DNA from: an uncultured bacterium
Lineage (GTDB): Bacteria; Eisenbacteria; RBG-16-71-46
Length of the DNA stretch: 64,000 nucleotides
Direction of reading: 5' to 3'
NCBI GenBank assembly: GCA_964434945.1
Contig: CAYSWZ010000037.1
Span: forward strand, 13,049-77,048
Under the pieces are notes generated by a model. The model was given only the letters and a program-made list of their open reading frames with translations, did no database searches and was not told the origin of the DNA. Made by a program: the position numbers and the translations under genes. Within the stretch, counting starts at the first letter, position 1, and each line of letters begins with the position of its first letter. This document shows positions 28,990-51,094 of the stretch, piece by piece.

Positions 28990-30149
28990 AGCAGACGACC
29001 CCGTCCCCGCCAGAGTCGCGGAAAGACCGCGAATGCGCGCAGGCGTCCCGGGCGCCAGGCCGCCGACAGGAGTTCGAACGCGAGCCAGCCGCCGTAGGCC
29101 CAGCACATGGCCCCGCGCGAGTCCGGCACCGCGAACTGCACGCCCCAGAACAACAGCAGCCCGAGCGCTTCGTACGCGTGGAAGACGAAGTTCGCGAGCA
29201 GCACCACGCCGAGCGCACCCTGCAGGAGCGTCAGCAGCACCTCGGTGCGATGCGGCCCGAGCGGCACGCTGGTCGGGGCCCCGATCGACCACGAGTACAC
29301 GATCGGGATCATCGCCGCGAGCACCGTCCACTGGTTGATGTTGCTCGAGGCCATGTTCATGAGCGCCATGCCGCCCTTGCCCCGGCTGCGCGCCCAGTAG
29401 GACGTGGTGACGAACTCGGGAAACTCCGACAGGAACGGCGCCACCCACTGGACGAACACGAACTGCGAGACGCCGGCGACGGTCGCGAGCCCGATCATGC
29501 TCTTCAGGAACGGATGCGCAGTGAGATAGAGCATGGCGCCGCCGACCAGGAACAGTCCCACCACGCTGAGCGGCCGCCAGGGCGAGGGCAGCGCCATCAC
29601 CGCGCGCGGGACGGCGCCGGCATCCTCGACCTCCTCGTGTTCCTTGGGTGGGATGCGCTGCAGCACCCAGAGATAGGCCGCGTAGATGCAGAGCAGCACA
29701 CCGGAATCCACGAGCCCGAGCGTGCCCTTCCACACGATCCACGCGAAGTAGACGAGCGCCGGGGTCAGTCCCACGATCTCGACGGCGTGCTCGGGGTCGA
29801 GCGCGATCGGCCGCCACAACTGCTCCTCGCCGCGCCCGCGCCGCGCGATCACGCTCACCACCCAGATCGCGGGCCAGCCGAGCCCGGTGAGGAGCCGCAG
29901 CGCACCGGTGAAATTGGCGGTCATGAGCGGCACGTTCTGGTGCCACGCGATCACCGCTTCGACCGCGAACTCGGGCAGGACCTGGATCCACGCCAGCAGC
30001 GCCAGGGCGAGGCCCTGGGAAATGTAGAACTGGGCGCACTCCGCGCCCCACGCGACGACGAACGACGACAGCAGGATGGTGGGGAACGTCCACAACGCCG
30101 AGTGCGCCACGCGGCGCACTTCCTCGGGCGGGAGATCGCTGCCGATCAT
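28986..30149 (-). CDS. Na+/Ca2+ exchanger-like cation antiporter
   Basis: Two alpha-repeat-like motifs (VLPEFAV...ANFTG; SEFPEF...ASSNINQ); about 10 TM segments. Confidence 0.7.
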   Translation of the reverse strand: MIGSDLPPEEVRRVAHSALWTFPTILLSSFVVAWGAECAQFYISQGLALALLAWIQVLPEFAVEAVIAWHQNVPLMTANFTGALRLLTGLGWPAIWVVSVIARRGRGEEQLWRPIALDPEHAVEIVGLTPALVYFAWIVWKGTLGLVDSGVLLCIYAAYLWVLQRIPPKEHEEVEDAGAVPRAVMALPSPWRPLSVVGLFLVGGAMLYLTAHPFLKSMIGLATVAGVSQFVFVQWVAPFLSEFPEFVTTSYWARSRGKGGMALMNMASSNINQWTVLAAMIPIVYSWSIGAPTSVPLGPHRTEVLLTLLQGALGVVLLANFVFHAYEALGLLLFWGVQFAVPDSRGAMCWAYGGWLAFELLSAAWRPGRLRAFAVFPRLWRGRGRLL

Positions 30150-30224
30150 GAGTCCCTTCGGAGGGCTGGGAGGTGCGCGCGCGGCTTGCGGGCGCAGTCG
30201 ACGAGCCGATACTGTCCCGCGTCC

Positions 30225-30902
30225 ATGACAGCGTCAAGAACACGCCGCCCGGTCCGCGTGCGCGTCGCTCGGACGCGACCGCTCGCCGCCGGCACGCGCG
30301 CCCTGTGCGCATTCGCGGCCGCGATGACGCGCGGGAACGAGCCCGAGGCCCGGGTCGCGCTGGCTGCAGCGCGCACCGCGGGTGTGCGCCGCAGGGCGGC
30401 GGAGGAGACGGCGCTCATGCTCATGTTGTACGCCGGGTATCCGAGCGCGCTCGAGAGCCTGCGCGTGCTGAACACGGCGTGGCCGGGCCGCGCACTCCGG
30501 ACGCGCGAGGGCGGGACGGCGCGCTGGCGGGCGCGCGGCGAGGCGTTGTGCCGCGAGGTCTACGGCACCGCATACGGCAAGCTCCTGCCGGCGGTGCGTG
30601 CGCTGCATCCCGATCTCGCGGTGTGGATGGTGGAGCACGGCTATGGCCGCGTGCTGGCGCGGAAGGGTCTCGCCGTCGTCGAGCGCGAACTCGTCACCGT
30701 TGCCGCGCTGGCGTCGCTGGGCTGGGAGCGCCAGCTGGTGAGCCACGTGCTCGGGGCCCTGAGGGTGGGCGCGGGTGAGGTCGCGACGCACGCCGCGCTC
30801 GAGGTGGGGGCGGGCCTCGCCGACGCGCGCGGCCGAGGCATCGCGTCGCGCACGTGGCGGCGCGCGGTCCGGGCGAACGCCGCGCTCGGCGCCGGCCGCT
30901 GA
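30225..30902 (+). CDS. Carboxymuconolactone decarboxylase/AhpD-like protein (tandem CMD domains)
   Basis: EETALMLMLYAGYP, YGRVLAR...ERELVTVAALA...SHVLGALRVG. No CxxC. Confidence 0.75.
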   Translation: MTASRTRRPVRVRVARTRPLAAGTRALCAFAAAMTRGNEPEARVALAAARTAGVRRRAAEETALMLMLYAGYPSALESLRVLNTAWPGRALRTREGGTARWRARGEALCREVYGTAYGKLLPAVRALHPDLAVWMVEHGYGRVLARKGLAVVERELVTVAALASLGWERQLVSHVLGALRVGAGEVATHAALEVGAGLADARGRGIASRTWRRAVRANAALGAGR

Positions 30903-30966
30903 GGCGGGAGATCGCCGGAGCCCGTTTCGAGCCGCCCGGCCGCTTCGCGCATCCAAACCGGGCACT

Positions 30967-30996
30967 TTGACCGTCCGCTCCCCGGCCCACTAGGAT
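30967..30996 (+). promoter_or_regulatory. Putative sigma70 promoter of the bsh operon
   Basis: TTGACC-N18-TAGGAT in the short gap before bshC. Confidence 0.5.
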
Positions 30997-31006
30997 GTCC
31001 GCTCGC

Positions 31007-31075
31007 ATGTCCCTGTCCTGCCGTGACTTCCACCATCGGTGCCATCCGACCTGCCGGTCGGGGCGATGTCGGTGA
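31007..31075 (+). CDS. Candidate Cys-rich leader peptide (MSLSCRDFHHRCHPTCRSGRCR)
   Basis: ATG 10 nt after the -10 box. 4 Cys codons in 22. Its TGA overlaps an in-frame GTG of bshC (GTGA). Not in the ORF track because it is short. Confidence 0.35.
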   Translation: MSLSCRDFHHRCHPTCRSGRCR

Positions 31076-32685
31076 CCCCGCGCGTGCTCGCCGTTCGCGC
31101 ACGGGTCGCGGCCACCGCCAACCGCGGCCCCCTGGGCGACACGCTCTCGCTCGACCTCCTGGCGGGCGGCCCCATCGCGCGCGAGCGCGTGCCCGTCCAG
31201 TGGCGGGACACCGCGCGGCTCCGTGCGCTCGCCGAGGCGAAGCGGGCGCCGCTTCCGGCCGCACTCGCGGGCGAGCTCACGGCCTACCACCGCCGACTCG
31301 GCGCCTCGCCCGCGTCGCTCGCCAACCTTGCGCGGCTCGCCCGCGGTGACGCGGTCGCGACCGTCGCGGGTCAACAGCCCGCACCGCTCGGTGGACCGCT
31401 CTACTCGCTCCACAAGACGGCCGGCGCGGTAGGGATGGCGGCGGACGTTTCGCGGCGCACGGGGGCCGCGTGCGTGCCGCTCTTCTGGATGCACGGCGAG
31501 GACTCCGATTTCGCCGAGATCCGCGGCGTGACCGTGGCGGACATGGAGCTGATGCTGCACGAGTCGCAGCTGCCGGACGACGCGCACTCGGACGGAGAGC
31601 TGGTGGGCGGGATCCGACTCGACGCCGTGCGCGAGACGGGAGCGCGGGCGATCGAGAAGTGGCGCGGGCTGCCCGGCCATGCCGGCGTGCAGGCGCTGTG
31701 GACCCGCTCGCTCGCGCAGGCGCAGGACCTGGGCGAGGCGATGAGCGCGCTCTGGCTCACGCTGTTCGCCGAGCAGGGCCTGGTGGTGGTGGATCCGCGG
31801 CTCCCCGCGTTCCGCGCCGCGGCACGGCCCATCGTCGAGCGCTACCTCGCGGGTGCGGACGGACTTCACGCCGCCGCGCGCGCCGCGGGCGCGCGCATGG
31901 AAGCGCTCACCGGCCGGCGCGCGCTCGCCGATGCGGCGCTCGACTCGTTCGTGTTCGAGGTGCGCGACGGCCGCCGCTACAAAGTCTCGGCGGCCGATGC
32001 GCTCGCGCGCGGCGCGTCGGCGGTGCTCTCCCCGAGCGTGGCGCTGCGGGCCGCCGTCCAGGATGGCGTGTTCCCGACCGTGGCCATGGCCTGCGGGCCC
32101 GGCGAGATCGCGTACCTGATGCAGCTCACGGAAGTGTTCGCGGGCGTGGGCGTGAAGCAGGCCGCGCCGGCGCTCCGCTTCGGGGCCACCTGGCTGCCTC
32201 CGGCGGCGGTCGCGCTGGCGGACGCCGCCGGGGGCGATGCGTGGGACGTGGTGACCCACACCGATGCCGTACTGGCGCGCGTCGCGGAGACGCGCGTCCC
32301 GACCGAGTTGCAGCAGGCGCTCGCCGCGGCGCGCGCCGCGGTGGACCAGTCCCTGGCGCGGCTCGCGGACGCCTCGCGCCCGTTCGATGCGAGCCTGCCG
32401 CAGATGGTCGAATCGGCGCGCGGGAAGATGGACTTCCAGGTGTCGCGGCTCGCCGAGGGCGTGCTCGGGAAGGCGCGCGGCCAGCTGGACCGCGAGCAGC
32501 CGCTGTGGCGCCGATTGCGCTACGTGCTGCTGCCGGGTGACAAGCTTCAGGAGCGCCGCCTCGCGTCGCTCGAGCCCGTGGCCCGCCTCGGGACGGGCGT
32601 GGTGACGGAACTGTGCGATCTCGCCGCCGAGCACGCGGCTCGAACGGCGGATGGCGTGCACGAACATCACCTGCTGGAGGCCTGA
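31066..32685 (+). CDS. bshC: Bacillithiol biosynthesis cysteine-adding enzyme BshC
   Basis: AGQQP...GGPLYSLHK, PLFWMHGEDSDFAEI, GPGEIAY, LQER. Start uncertain (GTG 31039, ATG 31066 or GTG 31072). Confidence 0.85.
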   Translation: MSVTPRVLAVRARVAATANRGPLGDTLSLDLLAGGPIARERVPVQWRDTARLRALAEAKRAPLPAALAGELTAYHRRLGASPASLANLARLARGDAVATVAGQQPAPLGGPLYSLHKTAGAVGMAADVSRRTGAACVPLFWMHGEDSDFAEIRGVTVADMELMLHESQLPDDAHSDGELVGGIRLDAVRETGARAIEKWRGLPGHAGVQALWTRSLAQAQDLGEAMSALWLTLFAEQGLVVVDPRLPAFRAAARPIVERYLAGADGLHAAARAAGARMEALTGRRALADAALDSFVFEVRDGRRYKVSAADALARGASAVLSPSVALRAAVQDGVFPTVAMACGPGEIAYLMQLTEVFAGVGVKQAAPALRFGATWLPPAAVALADAAGGDAWDVVTHTDAVLARVAETRVPTELQQALAAARAAVDQSLARLADASRPFDASLPQMVESARGKMDFQVSRLAEGVLGKARGQLDREQPLWRRLRYVLLPGDKLQERRLASLEPVARLGTGVVTELCDLAAEHAARTADGVHEHHLLEA

Positions 32686-32763
32686 TGCCGCTCGTGATGG
32701 CGTGCGCGTGATGGCACGCACGAGAGGTCGCTCGTGACTGCACGCTCGAGAACCGACCGGTGA
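32682..32763 (+). repeat. Degenerate 26-nt tandem repeat forming three stop/start-coupled mini-ORFs
   Basis: TGA at 32683, 32709, 32735 and 32761. Units 2 and 3 share GTGA-nn-GCACGC-n-CGAGA (16/26 identical). Confidence 0.55.
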
Positions 32764-33485
32764 CTCCACTCGACGCGCTGTGCTTCGGGGCGCATCCGGA
32801 CGACGTCGAGCTCACGTCGGGCGGGCTTGCCGCGCGGCTCGCGGCGCACGGGCACGCGGTCGGGATCGTCGACCTCACGCGCGGCGAGCTCGGCACGCGG
32901 GGTGACGTGGCCACGCGCGCGCGCGAGGCCGAGGCCGCGGCGCAGGCGCTCGGTGTTGCGGCGCGCATGACCCTCGCGCTGCCGGACGGCGGGCTCGACC
33001 GCCGCGACCCGGCCCAGATGAAGACGGTGGTCGAGTGCCTGCGCGAGCACCGCCCGCGGCTGGTGATCGCCCCCGACCGCCACGACGAGCACCCGGACCA
33101 CGTCGAGGCCTCCCACCTCGTGGCGCGCGCGTGCTACCTCGCCGGCCTCGCGCGCTACCCGGCCGCGGGCGAGCGCTTCCGCCCCGGCCGGCTGCTGTTC
33201 GCGCTCTATCGCTCGGGCACGGCGCCGCACCTGGTCGTGGACGTGAGTGCGGTGTGGCCGCGGCGCGTGGCGGCGCTCCGCGCGCACGCGAGCCAGTTGG
33301 ATCCGGGGGCCGGGCCGGGCACGTACCTCACCGCCGCCGGATTCGTGGAATCGGTCGAGGCGCGCGCGCGCGCATGGGGCGCACTGGCGGGGGTGGAGTA
33401 CGCCGAGGGCTATCGCGTGCGCGGACCCCTGCCCGTCCTCGATGCGCGCACGCTGCTCGCCGCACGCGGGAGCGACCATGGTTGA
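32760..33485 (+). CDS. bshB1: N-acetylglucosaminyl-malate deacetylase BshB1
   Basis: GAHPDDVEL, DLTRGELGTRG, DRHDEHPDH, YAEG (PIG-L family). Lies between bshC and bshA. Confidence 0.88.
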   Translation: MTPLDALCFGAHPDDVELTSGGLAARLAAHGHAVGIVDLTRGELGTRGDVATRAREAEAAAQALGVAARMTLALPDGGLDRRDPAQMKTVVECLREHRPRLVIAPDRHDEHPDHVEASHLVARACYLAGLARYPAAGERFRPGRLLFALYRSGTAPHLVVDVSAVWPRRVAALRAHASQLDPGAGPGTYLTAAGFVESVEARARAWGALAGVEYAEGYRVRGPLPVLDARTLLAARGSDHG

Positions 33486-34692
33486 GCGGAAGCCGGCGCG
33501 ATCGCGCACCGAGTCCCGGCCGCGGCGCCCCGCCGCCGCGGGGAGGGTCGCGCCCCCGGCACGCGGCCGGGCCGGCAAGAAGCTCAAGATCGGCATCAGC
33601 TGCTACGCGCACTTCGGCGGCAGCGGCGTGGTGGCGTCCGAGCTCGGGCGCGAGCTGGCGCGGCGCGGTCACGAGGTCCACCTCATCGCCAGCCACCTGC
33701 CGTTTCGGTTGCGGAGCTTCGAGCCCAACATCTTCTTTCACGAGGCGACGCCGGCCGCCTACCCGGTGTTCGAGGAGGCGCCGAGCAACCTCGCGCTCGC
33801 CACCAAGATGGTCGAGGTGACCGAGAACTACATGCTGGACGTGCTGCACGTGCACTACGCGATGCCGTTCGCGACCAGCGCCTACCTGGCGAAGCAGATC
33901 ATGCTGCCGCGCGCGCTCGGCGTGGTCACGACGCTTCACGGCACGGACATCACCGTGCTCGGCGCGGAGCCCTCGTTCTTCCGGATCACCCAGTTCAGCA
34001 TGCAGTCCAGCGACCGGCTGACCGCCGTGTCCCGCTTCCTCAAGGAGCGCGCCGAGGCCACGTTCGGGTTCACCCGGCCGATCGAGGTGATCTACAACTT
34101 CGTGGATCCGCACGTCTTCGCACCCAAGCGCGACAGCCGCATCCGCCTCGCGGCCCCTGGGACGAAGGTCCTCATGCATGCTTCCAACTTTCGTCCGGTC
34201 AAGAACATACCGGTCGTTATTCAAGTATTTGCCGAAGTTCGGAAGCAGCTTCAGGCCAAGCTGGTGATGGTCGGGGACGGTCCGGAGAAGGCGGCCTCGG
34301 AGCAGCTCGCCCGCGAACTGGGGGTGCACCGGGACGTTCTCTTCCTCGGAAACCAGGACTGCATGGAGGAAATGCTGCCACTTGCCGATGTATTCCTCCT
34401 GCCGAGCTCCTCCGAGAGCTTCGGCCTCGTGGCGCTTGAAGCCATGAGTGCCGAGGTGCCGGTCGTCTGCTCCAATGCGGGTGGCCTGCCGGAGGTGGTC
34501 GAGCACGGGTTCACGGGTTTCCTGCACGAGCCGGCCCACGTGGCCGGCTACACGGCGTCGGTGCTCAAGCTGCTCACGAACGACACGCTCCGGCGTACCA
34601 TGGGCCGCCGTGGGCGGCGGGTGGCGATGGAGCGCTTCAGCGCCGAGGAGATGGTCGAACGTTACGTTAAGGTGTACGAGTCCCTGCGGTGA
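33478..34692 (+). CDS. bshA: N-acetyl-alpha-D-glucosaminyl L-malate synthase BshA
   Basis: IGISCY...GGSGVVASELG, HVHYAMP, TTLHGTDIT, SNFRPVK, ESFGLVALEAM. Confidence 0.92.
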   Translation: MVERKPARSRTESRPRRPAAAGRVAPPARGRAGKKLKIGISCYAHFGGSGVVASELGRELARRGHEVHLIASHLPFRLRSFEPNIFFHEATPAAYPVFEEAPSNLALATKMVEVTENYMLDVLHVHYAMPFATSAYLAKQIMLPRALGVVTTLHGTDITVLGAEPSFFRITQFSMQSSDRLTAVSRFLKERAEATFGFTRPIEVIYNFVDPHVFAPKRDSRIRLAAPGTKVLMHASNFRPVKNIPVVIQVFAEVRKQLQAKLVMVGDGPEKAASEQLARELGVHRDVLFLGNQDCMEEMLPLADVFLLPSSSESFGLVALEAMSAEVPVVCSNAGGLPEVVEHGFTGFLHEPAHVAGYTASVLKLLTNDTLRRTMGRRGRRVAMERFSAEEMVERYVKVYESLR

Positions 34693-34776
34693 TGGCGGAG
34701 CGCCGCTCGCCGCGGGTGTCAACGTCAGCCGACCGGCGGGCATGCCGGCGGACCCAGTAGCGGAACGAGGGACCCG

Positions 34777-35859
34777 ATGCTCGGGAAGAAGCGACGCGTG
34801 GTGATCATGGCGGAGGGAAGCTTCACGCCCCTCGATGCCAAGACCGCGCTGGGAGTGATCCGGTATCGCCCCGGCGAGGTCGTGGCGGTGATCGATTCCG
34901 TGCGTGCGGGGCGGACGAGCGAGGACTGCGTCGGCGTGGGCGGCGACATCCCGGTCGTGGCGGGCCTGGAGGGCGCGGCCCGCCACGACCCGGATTCGCT
35001 GCTGCTCGGCACCGCGCCGCAGGGCGGCGGGCTGCCGGAGTCGTGGCGGCACGTCGTGGCCGAGGCGCTCATGCGCGGCTGGGACGTGCTGTCGGGACTG
35101 CACGTGTTCCTGAACGACGATCCCGAGCTGGCCGCGCTCGCCCGCTCCAAGGGATGCACGATGTACGACGTCCGGCGGCCCCCGGCATCGCGGGCTATCG
35201 CGGCGCGCCGCGTGGCGAATACCGATGCCCTCGTCGTACTCACGGTCGGCAGCGACTGCAACGTCGGCAAGATGACCACCGCGTTGGAGGTGAACGCCGA
35301 GCTCCAGAGCCGGGGTGCGCGCTCCGCGTTCGTGGCCACCGGGCAGACCGGGATCCTGATCGCCGACCGCGGCGCCGCGGTGGACGCCGTGCCTGCGGAT
35401 TTCGTCGCCGGCGTTGTGGAGAAGCTCGTGCTCGAGGCCGCACGCGAGGCCGACATCGTCCTCGTCGAGGGGCAGGGTGCGATCCACCATCCGGCCTACT
35501 CGGGGGTGACGCTGTCGCTCATGCACGGCGCCTGCCCGGAAGCGCTCATCCTCTGCCACGAGGCCGGCCGCACGCACTTGAAGCTGGCGGACGCGGGGCC
35601 CACGCCGCGCCTCCGCTCGCTGTCCGAGATCATCCGCGACAACGAGCGCGCGGCGGGATGGATCCGTCCCGCGCCGGTGCTGGCGCTGTCCCTCAACACC
35701 ATGATGATGGACGATCTCGAGGCCCGGCGCGCGCTCGAGAATGCGACGCAACTCACCCGGCTGCCGGCGGTGGACCCGGTGCGCTTCGGCACCGAGGTGG
35801 TGGCCACCGAACTCCTGCGCCGGCTCGACGCACGCAAGCGCCGGGCCTCGAACGAGTAG
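34777..35859 (+). CDS. DUF1611 family protein (DgcN-like N-acetyltransferase with P-loop domain)
   Basis: AKTALGVIRY, SGLH, VGSDCNVGKMTT, ATGQTG, DAVPADF, EGQG, HPAYSGV. Confidence 0.85.
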   Translation: MLGKKRRVVIMAEGSFTPLDAKTALGVIRYRPGEVVAVIDSVRAGRTSEDCVGVGGDIPVVAGLEGAARHDPDSLLLGTAPQGGGLPESWRHVVAEALMRGWDVLSGLHVFLNDDPELAALARSKGCTMYDVRRPPASRAIAARRVANTDALVVLTVGSDCNVGKMTTALEVNAELQSRGARSAFVATGQTGILIADRGAAVDAVPADFVAGVVEKLVLEAAREADIVLVEGQGAIHHPAYSGVTLSLMHGACPEALILCHEAGRTHLKLADAGPTPRLRSLSEIIRDNERAAGWIRPAPVLALSLNTMMMDDLEARRALENATQLTRLPAVDPVRFGTEVVATELLRRLDARKRRASNE

Positions 35860-35956
35860 GAATCCGCCGGACGGCGTAAGCTCGGCCCGGCGGGAGGCCG
35901 GCCACGCGACAGCGGCCGGGATCGATCGTCTCACCCATCCGCGAGGCTCCGTCCCG

Positions 35957-36982
35957 ATGCAACTCCGCAGCGAACCGCTCGACCTGCACACCGTGTTCGA
36001 GTTCCGCATCGCGCATGGCGCACGGCGCGCGCACCGGAACACGCTGGTGCGCGTCACGCACGACGGGATCGAGGGGCTGGGCGAGGCGGCGCCATCGCAC
36101 TACTACGGCGAGACGCCGGCCACCGTCGAGGCGGCGCTGGCCGAGTGGGCGCCCGTGCTCGGGGAGGACCCGTTCGCGCTGGACGCGCTCGAGCAGCGGC
36201 TCGACTCCGCACTCCAGGGGAACGCTGCGGCGCGCGCGGGACTGGAGATGGCGCTGCACGACTGGATCGGAAAGAAACTCGGCGTGCCCACCTGGCGGCT
36301 GCTCGGGCTCGACCCGGCGCGGACGCCGCGTTCGTGCGTCACGCTCGGCATGGCGAGCCCCGAGGAGATGGACCGGAAGCTCGAAACGGTGAAGGACTTC
36401 CCGCTCATCAAGGTCAAGCTCGGGGGACCGGGCGACGTCGACAACCTGCGGCGGATCCGCGCCCGCTACAGGGGCAAGCTGCAGGTGGACGCGAACACCG
36501 CGTGGAACGCCGCCGACGCCGTGAAGGTGCTGCGCCTGATCGAGCCGCTCGAGATCGAGCTGGTCGAGCAGCCCGTCCCGCGCGGCGACCTGGACGGCCT
36601 GCGCTGGGTCCGCGAGCGGAGCCCGATTCCGGTGTTCGCGGACGAGAGCGCGCACACGCTCGCCGACATCGGACTCCTCGCCGGGCGCGTCGACGGCGTC
36701 AATCTCAAGCTCATGAAGACGGGCGGCATCCGCGAGATGCAGCGCATGATCCACGCCGCGCGCGCGCACGGCATGAAGGTGATGCTCGGATCCATGGTCG
36801 AGTCCAGCCTGGCGCTGTCGGCCGCGGCGCAGCTCGCGCCGCTCGTGGACTACCTCGATCTCGACGGCCACTGGCTGCTGAAGGACGACCCATTCGACGG
36901 CGCGCCGCGCGAGCGTGGCGAGATCCGGCTCGGGAGCCGCGCCGGACTCGGCGTGGTGCCCGCGGGAGCCCCGGTCCGGTGA
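35957..36982 (+). CDS. Dipeptide epimerase / DgcA-like racemase (enolase superfamily)
   Basis: IKVKLG (KxK), VDAN, EQP, ADES, NLKLMKTGG, DLDG. Confidence 0.88.
   Translation: MQLRSEPLDLHTVFEFRIAHGARRAHRNTLVRVTHDGIEGLGEAAPSHYYGETPATVEAALAEWAPVLGEDPFALDALEQRLDSALQGNAAARAGLEMALHDWIGKKLGVPTWRLLGLDPARTPRSCVTLGMASPEEMDRKLETVKDFPLIKVKLGGPGDVDNLRRIRARYRGKLQVDANTAWNAADAVKVLRLIEPLEIELVEQPVPRGDLDGLRWVRERSPIPVFADESAHTLADIGLLAGRVDGVNLKLMKTGGIREMQRMIHAARAHGMKVMLGSMVESSLALSAAAQLAPLVDYLDLDGHWLLKDDPFDGAPRERGEIRLGSRAGLGVVPAGAPVR

Positions 36983-50380: not shown

Positions 50381-51093
<713 letters not shown>

Positions 51094-51094
<1 letters not shown>

Follow-up and report, generated by a model that had tools for sequence, protein, structure and literature searches.

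What carries ribosomes from bshC to bshB1 when 74 nucleotides (nt) separate the two genes and the second has no recognisable Shine-Dalgarno (SD) sequence? The question arises in a 64-kb window of DNA with 72% G+C, the whole stretch analysed here, in which the bacillithiol gene bshC (31072..32685) is followed by a second one, bshB1 (32760..33485), and by bshA (33478..34692), all on the forward strand like the other features of the operon. The gap between bshC and bshB1 is tiled from end to end by three open reading frames (ORFs) of 8-9 codons, and every stop codon in the series overlaps the following start. We think it likely that this series is a termination-reinitiation relay, which would have been born by tandem duplication of the gene junction and kept because bshB1 depends on coupling.

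The register of the chain is set by TGA codons at 32683, 32709, 32735 and 32761. Mini-ORF1 (32685..32711) reads MPLVMACA, mini-ORF2 (32708..32737) reads (V)MARTRGRS, with a GTG at 32708 and an ATG at 32711 that share a frame and each overlap TGA 32709, and mini-ORF3 (32734..32763) reads VTARSRTDR and ends on a TGA that overlaps the bshB1 GTG. These positions, the mini-ORFs and the full coverage of the gap agree base for base with a preliminary description of the locus. Counted from each TGA to the base before the next, the region divides into repeat unit 0 (32683..32708), unit 1 (32709..32734) and unit 2 (32735..32760), each of 26 nt. The same description had called the units degenerate repeats, and recomputation returned its figure of 16/26 identical positions between the second and third (numbered 2 and 3 there), with 15/26 between 1 and 2 and 11/26 between 1 and 3. 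Tandem Repeats Finder did not detect the units, which are too diverged, and the TGA register and the relatives are the basis for the 26-nt periodicity. When the gap was shuffled 300,000 times, a complete chain arose by chance 152 times; among 120,000 random 74-mers of the window, 31 contained one, and neither strand of the window has another chain of at least three overlapped mini-ORFs. Two independent Logan assemblies (L161 and L162) have exactly the same spacer, as do contigs from wetland metagenome runs X1-X6 that cover it wholly or in part, so it is no assembly artefact. A second TGA in the bshC frame lies at 32695-32697, four codons past the real stop (TGA TGC CGC TCG TGA); GTG 32694 and ATG 32697 both overlap it and offer a side entry to the chain, and it is probably a by-product of duplication.

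Relatives of the locus reveal the arrangement that preceded the gap. In about ten more distant relatives, with 72-85% BshB1 identity, the bshC stop and the bshB1 start overlap directly, leaving no gap (L001, L002, L081, L082, L175/176, L177, L178-181 and L182, L168/169 with GTGA instead, and L173, which has an in-frame 12-nt repeat as well); the sequence there, …CTGCTGGAGGCCTGATGGCGCTCGACGCG…, translates as LLEA and a stop on one side and MALDA on the other. When the window is aligned to these loci, 75 extra nt stand between the ancestral ATG (32685) and the CTCGAC of bshB1. With the insert placed after ATG 32685, mini-ORF1 begins at the ancestral bshB1 start codon. The insertion is present in all loci whose BshB1 is at least 88% identical to that of the window, and a neighbour-joining tree of bshB1 places its six versions in one clade (83-93% nucleotide identity), so it arose once; judged from this distribution among the sequences, it is the derived state.

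The six versions differ in the number of units and agree in their logic. Three units of 26 nt, a 74-nt gap and a final GTGA junction are found in the window (L161 and L162 identical) and in L164/165, where the mini-ORFs read MACVMACS, VTPLIGARS and VTPLLGARS. Two units of 26 nt with a gap of 48 nt and a final GTGA occur in L163 (MSPARPRP and (V)MAMFPERS) and in L166/167 (MSLARSRP and (V)MALFPERS). The gap is 51 nt both in L170-172, with units of 26 and 29 nt, a final ATGA and the mini-ORFs MPRFTRGS and (V)MPRFAGCSS, and in L174, with two 26-nt units, a final TGATG and the mini-ORFs MARFTRCS and (V)MACFAGRS. The chain is intact in all six, every unit is 3n+2 nt long (26 nt, once 29), and the sole indel within a unit measures 3 nt (26 to 29). 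All four junctions in the window, and all those of the five further versions, are the NTGA (4-nt) or TGATG (1-nt) overlaps of coupled cistrons. It had been predicted that spacer lengths would vary in steps that preserve coupling, and this is borne out by gaps of 48 or 51 versus 74 nt in which all units are 3n+2 and the overlaps are kept. No within-sample polymorphism in unit number was seen in runs X1-X8. Run X8, from the same wetland study, yielded a 360-nt contig that matches 32455-32827 with about 78% identity in both flanks and has 53 nt where the window has 131, so a more distant, insert-free organism co-occurs with the insert-bearing population.

Where the units came from is suggested by their resemblance to the junction itself. 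Compared with the ancestral 26-mer TGATGGCGCTCGACGCGCTGTGCTTC, which comprises the overlap and bshB1 codons 1-8, the units match at a mean of 11.2 of 23 positions versus 7.05 +/- 2.2 for shuffled sequences; the best single units reach 15/23, and unit 0 of the window is identical to the ancestral junction 26-mer at 16 of 26 positions. A tandem duplication of this 26-mer would yield MALDALCF and a stop, then bshB1, which explains both the period and the Cys codon of several first mini-ORFs; by this comparison, these Cys codons look like a relic of the ALC in ALCFGAHPDD. In L164, units 1 and 2 are identical at 23 of 26 positions and both open with bshB1's own first 11 nt (TGACCCCACTC), a pattern that shows, as far as sequence can, a recent further 26-nt duplication of the kind to be expected if units spaced 26 nt apart slip against each other. 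In L173, a 72%-identical lineage, the bshC/bshB1 junction recurs as four 12-nt units (TGATGGCCGGCG; positions 400-480); the period there is 3n, with the result that BshB1 gains an in-frame N-terminal extension (MAGVMAGVMGGVTAGVMG…) and no relay is formed. From its sequence, this duplication is independent of the one in the relay clade, and the junction seems prone to slippage. A BshB1 homologue, P0038, for which the protein sequence is available, begins MMALDAL, which would fit a 3-nt duplication (TGATGATGG) at the bshC/bshB1 junction. Junction duplications tolerated because they keep coupling, which the preliminary description had offered as its alternative, are thus the best account of origin.

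We propose the following sequence of events. The ancestor would have had a bshC stop overlapping the bshB1 start (…CTGGAGGCCTGATGGCGCTCGAC…), with a GGAGG within the final codons of bshC. One clade would then have duplicated in tandem a 26-nt piece made up of the overlap and about the first eight bshB1 codons. As 26 is 3n+2, the start codon of each copy would read directly into the TGA of the next, and the duplication would therefore have produced short pseudo-starts of bshB1, of 8-9 codons, each ending on the following start. Later slippage between units would have added whole 26-nt units, giving two or three. Ribosomes that end bshC would now re-initiate at the ancestral SD and ATG 32685, terminate after eight codons at 32709, re-initiate on the overlapping GTG or ATG, repeat the same step at 32735, and at 32761 begin bshB1, while the mini-ORF peptides themselves would be functionless. 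In reporter work, termination-reinitiation coupling was almost abolished by stop-start gaps of about 20 nt (PMC10666635), and a gap of 50-75 nt would for this reason need stepping stones. Purifying selection on the chain is proposed on two grounds: bshB1 has lost its SD to mini-ORF1 and would need the hand-off, and an upstream ORF that did not terminate would read through the bshB1 start in the wrong frame.

The distribution of SD sequences fits such a loss. The GGAGG inside the last bshC codons (32676..32680) is the ancestral SD of bshB1 and now stands ahead of mini-ORF1. Its pairing with the anti-SD is -9.3 kcal/mol in all insertion-bearing loci and in the TGATG-overlap relatives L175 and L177, and -10.6 kcal/mol in L001, against a background with a median of -3.0 and a 5th percentile of -7.5 kcal/mol. 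The second mini-ORF pairs at -1.5 to -5.0 kcal/mol across the versions, that of the window having no SD (-1.9 kcal/mol), and mini-ORF3 of the window is preceded by a GAGG at 32724-32727 (-6.5 kcal/mol). For bshB1 the values are about at background in the window (-3.0 kcal/mol), L170 (-3.9) and L174 (-3.1), so that the gene is without an SD in three of the six versions; the window's value equals the background median, in agreement with the earlier statement that bshB1 there has none. Clear SD sequences precede bshA (GGGAG) and the following DUF1611 gene, and the organism thus uses SDs. From this pattern, the bshB1 of the window, at least, appears to rely on the hand-off.

The deep lineages share 61-73% identity at four-fold degenerate sites of bshB1 and 46-81% in orthologous spacer units (in the close pairs L163/L166 and L170/L174 the units reach 85-92%); because the two are similar, most of the spacer is drifting at roughly the neutral rate. 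Three elements never vary among the 14 units: the TGA, the G that precedes it (making GTGA) and C7. The spacers have diverged by 20-50% among the six versions, and the chains are still intact. In a simulation of a single lineage, which allowed substitutions only and held the bshC stop and bshB1 start fixed, the chain survived 20% change 14-32% of the time. When neutral evolution was simulated on the observed tree, with divergences set to reproduce the observed spacer differences, the probability that all six tips keep the chain was 0.0003-0.008. Even the type of the final junction has turned over (GTGA, ATGA, TGATG) with the overlap always retained; since the junction type changed and the sole within-unit indel is 3 nt, selection for the overlap itself fits.

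Several points weigh against a relay maintained by selection. The sample is small, with four to five deep lineages, and the simulations ignore indels, duplication and gene conversion between units. The neighbouring spacer between bshA and the DUF1611 gene is also constant, measuring 84 nt in each of the four clade loci with coverage there (the window, L163, L166 and L170), so the missing 1-2-nt indels are weak evidence when taken alone. A moderate GGAG lies 5-7 nt before the bshB1 start in L164, L163 and L166 (-5.8 to -6.5 kcal/mol), which makes independent initiation of bshB1 possible in these versions. The units match the ancestral 26-mer to a modest degree, leaving the exact duplication boundaries uncertain, and translation of the mini-ORFs is predicted from the DNA of an uncultured host, for whose operon a search for RNA sequencing runs came back empty.

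The same points bear on the rival explanations. The chain might be an inert relic, a by-product of duplicating a TGATG junction that persists by descent and short divergence time while bshB1 initiates alone. Duplication of a junction automatically copies the stop/start overlap, the GGAG motifs of L164, L163 and L166 could serve such initiation, and the simulated retention of the chain rises to 4-10% if divergence is halved. We consider this unlikely, because the non-critical positions of the spacer have diverged like synonymous sites around critical bases that are invariant, the overlap has outlived each change of junction type, and the only within-unit indel spared the frame. An inert chain also sits poorly with the SD-less bshB1 of the window, L170 and L174, and with the strong ancestral SD and ATG, from which an unterminated ORF would run across the bshB1 start out of frame. 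A mobile mini-element of the kind known as mycobacterial interspersed repetitive units (MIRUs) would produce the same architecture if it had landed on the bshB1 start codon and later multiplied in tandem, since MIRUs insert at start codons, carry ORFs coupled to their flanks and vary in tandem copy number (PMC12548453, PMC3184786, PMC4213456). This origin is very improbable: searches of the 64-kb window with an nhmmer profile of the 14 units and with blastn-short returned chance-level matches only (best outside match E = 0.58), the units show similarity to the local junction and to the 5' end of bshB1, and they are 26 nt long versus 40-100 bp for MIRUs. Hardly credible at all is the remaining pair, an assembly or sequencing artefact or a read-through of TGA that gives an N-terminally extended BshB1. 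The 75-nt insert of the window is in frame with the ancestral ATG and contains a single in-frame TGA, as read-through would have it, but the two-unit inserts of 49 or 52 nt are out of frame, so read-through is not a general mechanism; an artefact is contradicted by the recurrence of the same spacer in several independent assemblies and samples.

A selected tuner or attenuator is a further reading, in which the number of relay steps or the Cys codons of the mini-ORFs would set or regulate the BshC:BshB1:BshA ratio, for example by cysteine supply. Unit number does differ with lineage, each step of re-initiation should fall short of full efficiency (PMC6728339), Cys codons occur in the first mini-ORFs of the window and of L164 (two in the latter) and in L170 and L174, and the operon is already opened by a conserved Cys-rich upstream ORF (uORF). 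We nevertheless regard the tuner as unlikely. The mini-ORFs carry zero to two Cys codons, which are not conserved as those of a Cys-responsive leader would be, and their peptide sequences are not conserved either; about ten relatives manage by direct overlap. The preliminary suggestion of Cys sensing by the mini-ORFs finds no support in L163 and L166, neither of whose mini-ORFs has a Cys codon, and elsewhere the codon stands at the position of the Cys in the ALCFG of bshB1 and so looks inherited. Nor was a conserved RNA structure found that could act as riboswitch, attenuator or terminator: an Rfam scan of 30500-35500 at E <= 1 gave no match, a terminator scan gave no terminator-like site, and the fold of 32670-32790 (121 nt) is less stable than shuffles (z = +1.3). 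The 5-bp GCGTG/CACGC hairpin reported at one junction does exist, but it lies in this weakly folding region and is absent in relatives.

A related idea extends the relay we favour. Gain and loss of 3n+2 units by slippage would change the number of re-initiation steps, and with it the output of BshB1 relative to BshC, while never uncoupling the genes, and unit number would be under lineage-specific selection. Such an evolvable translational rheostat is a speculative proposal that we think unlikely to hold; if it did, the array would be a locally born, non-mobile counterpart of MIRUs and would show, in nature, that ribosomes which have terminated need stepping stones to cross 50-75 nt.

The termination-reinitiation relay has its closest known parallel in the MIRU arrays themselves. 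Units of 77 bp and 53 bp lie between senX3 and regX3 (Supply et al. 1997, as cited in PMC12548453, PMC3184786 and PMC4213456). As in those accounts, short tandem units stand between co-transcribed genes, each contains a small ORF overlapping the stop before it and the start after it, and a two-gene operon is thereby turned into a series of coupled cistrons. Unit lengths are 3n+2 in both cases (77 and 53 for the MIRUs as quoted there, 26 and 29 here), and copy number differs between strains there and between two and three units here. Unlike the bshC-bshB1 units, MIRUs are dispersed in about 40-50 copies per genome and apparently mobile, whereas no second copy occurs in the 64-kb window; their length is 40-100 bp, while the units of 26 or 29 nt described here apparently derive from the local junction and the first bshB1 codons. 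The host is likewise different, not a Mycobacterium but an uncultured high-GC soil or wetland bacterium whose related genomes are labelled Methylomirabilota or Eisenbacteria. By analogy, the bshC-bshB1 array would work like a MIRU array, and it is not a member of the MIRU family.

Other comparisons place the relay within ordinary coupling. All of its junctions are -4 or -1 overlaps, as in the ATGA/TGATG termination-reinitiation coupling described by Huber et al. (2019, PMC6728339; 2023, PMC10666635), and the classical form is exactly the bshC/bshB1 arrangement of the insertion-free relatives. The difference is that the hand-off would pass through two or three non-coding-like mini-cistrons and not from gene to gene. 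Ribosome-delivering uORFs and synthetic bicistronic designs (PMC12548453) also have a short, SD-bearing ORF that ends on the start of an SD-less gene; those are single ORFs in a 5' leader, whereas the mini-ORFs are serial, repeated, intercistronic and born of duplication.

At this locus, evolution has in effect run an experiment on translational coupling. The stop and start of a coupled junction have come to lie 50-75 nt apart, and what survives in every descendant is a set of stepping stones with overlapping stops and starts whose lengths stay 3n+2, in agreement with reporter work in which re-initiation needs overlaps or very short gaps (PMC10666635). It also suggests that junction duplication, without a mobile element, can give rise to a MIRU-like arrangement, here in a phylum remote from Mycobacterium. 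Annotators of high-GC genomes should not take such "intergenic" spacers as untranslated, and adjoining start-codon calls can be checked against the logic of the relay. GTG 32760 is an example. It is the sole ATG, GTG or TTG in the bshB1 frame between the in-frame TGA 32709 and the conserved ALCFGAHPDD motif, and it is a sensible start because the BshB1 profile match begins at residue 4, on which position 2 of TIGR04001 falls.

The three genes are identified by their profile matches. The bshC product matches TIGR03998 with E = 3e-75 and 254 bits, just under the curated cut-off of 266 bits; the earliest possible start of its ORF is 31039, and the conserved, coupled start is GTG 31072. BshB1 matches TIGR04001 (E = 4e-72), and bshA, in the ORF 33247-34692, matches TIGR03999. 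The bshA ATG lies within the 3' end of bshB1 in an 8-nt overlap (ATGGTTGA) that is kept in relatives. Upstream of the operon stands a promoter-like site, TTGACC-18 nt-TAGGAT (30967..30996), which is identified by its match to the consensus and also found in relatives.

Downstream of this site is the Cys-rich uORF (31007..31075), which reads MSLSCRDFHHRCHPTCRSGRCR and has four Cys in 22 codons; its TGA overlaps GTG 31072 of the bshC frame as GTGA. The peptide pattern MSxSC..F….GRCR, followed by the stop, and the GTGA junction (TTGA in L001) are kept in all ten loci examined, and this conservation extends to insertion-free relatives, some only about 75% identical. Mycobacteria have cysteine-responsive Cys-rich leader ORFs. 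The bshC uORF, GTGA-coupled and with its four Cys codons, resembles these and the three mini-ORFs do not; from its sequence it is a candidate cysteine-responsive leader for the gene of a cysteine-adding enzyme. With the conserved GTGA onto bshC, the mini-ORFs and the 8-nt overlap of bshB1 and bshA, the operon reads as a single hand-off chain, which upholds the earlier view that the uORF belongs to it.

A last member had been added to that chain, the 22-codon ORF after bshA (34692..34760; TGATG start, TAG stop). The ORF is present, but it falls outside the conserved system: its stop lies uncoupled, 16 nt ahead of a next gene that has its own SD, and it occurs only in the window, L163 and L166, its start and stop having been lost in L170 and the ORF being absent in insertion-free relatives. 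Within the spacer between bshA and the DUF1611 gene (34692-34777), a GC-rich stretch (…GCCGGCGGAC…) is conserved, and a GAGGGA SD stands ahead of the next gene. A 36-codon ORF at 50984-51094, considered as a "coupler ORF", proved to be the C-terminal end of an ABC-ATPase-like gene in its own frame and no mini-ORF. Throughout the window, pairs of long ORFs with a direct 4-nt or 1-nt overlap of stop and start are common. Gene order around the operon is conserved (29178-36000; L168, L170, L175, L177) and runs from a gene of the carboxymuconolactone decarboxylase-like (CMD) family through the uORF, bshC, bshB1 and bshA to a DUF1611/DgcN-like gene, to which the gene calls of relatives add, at the end, a gene like those for mandelate racemase and muconate lactonising enzyme.

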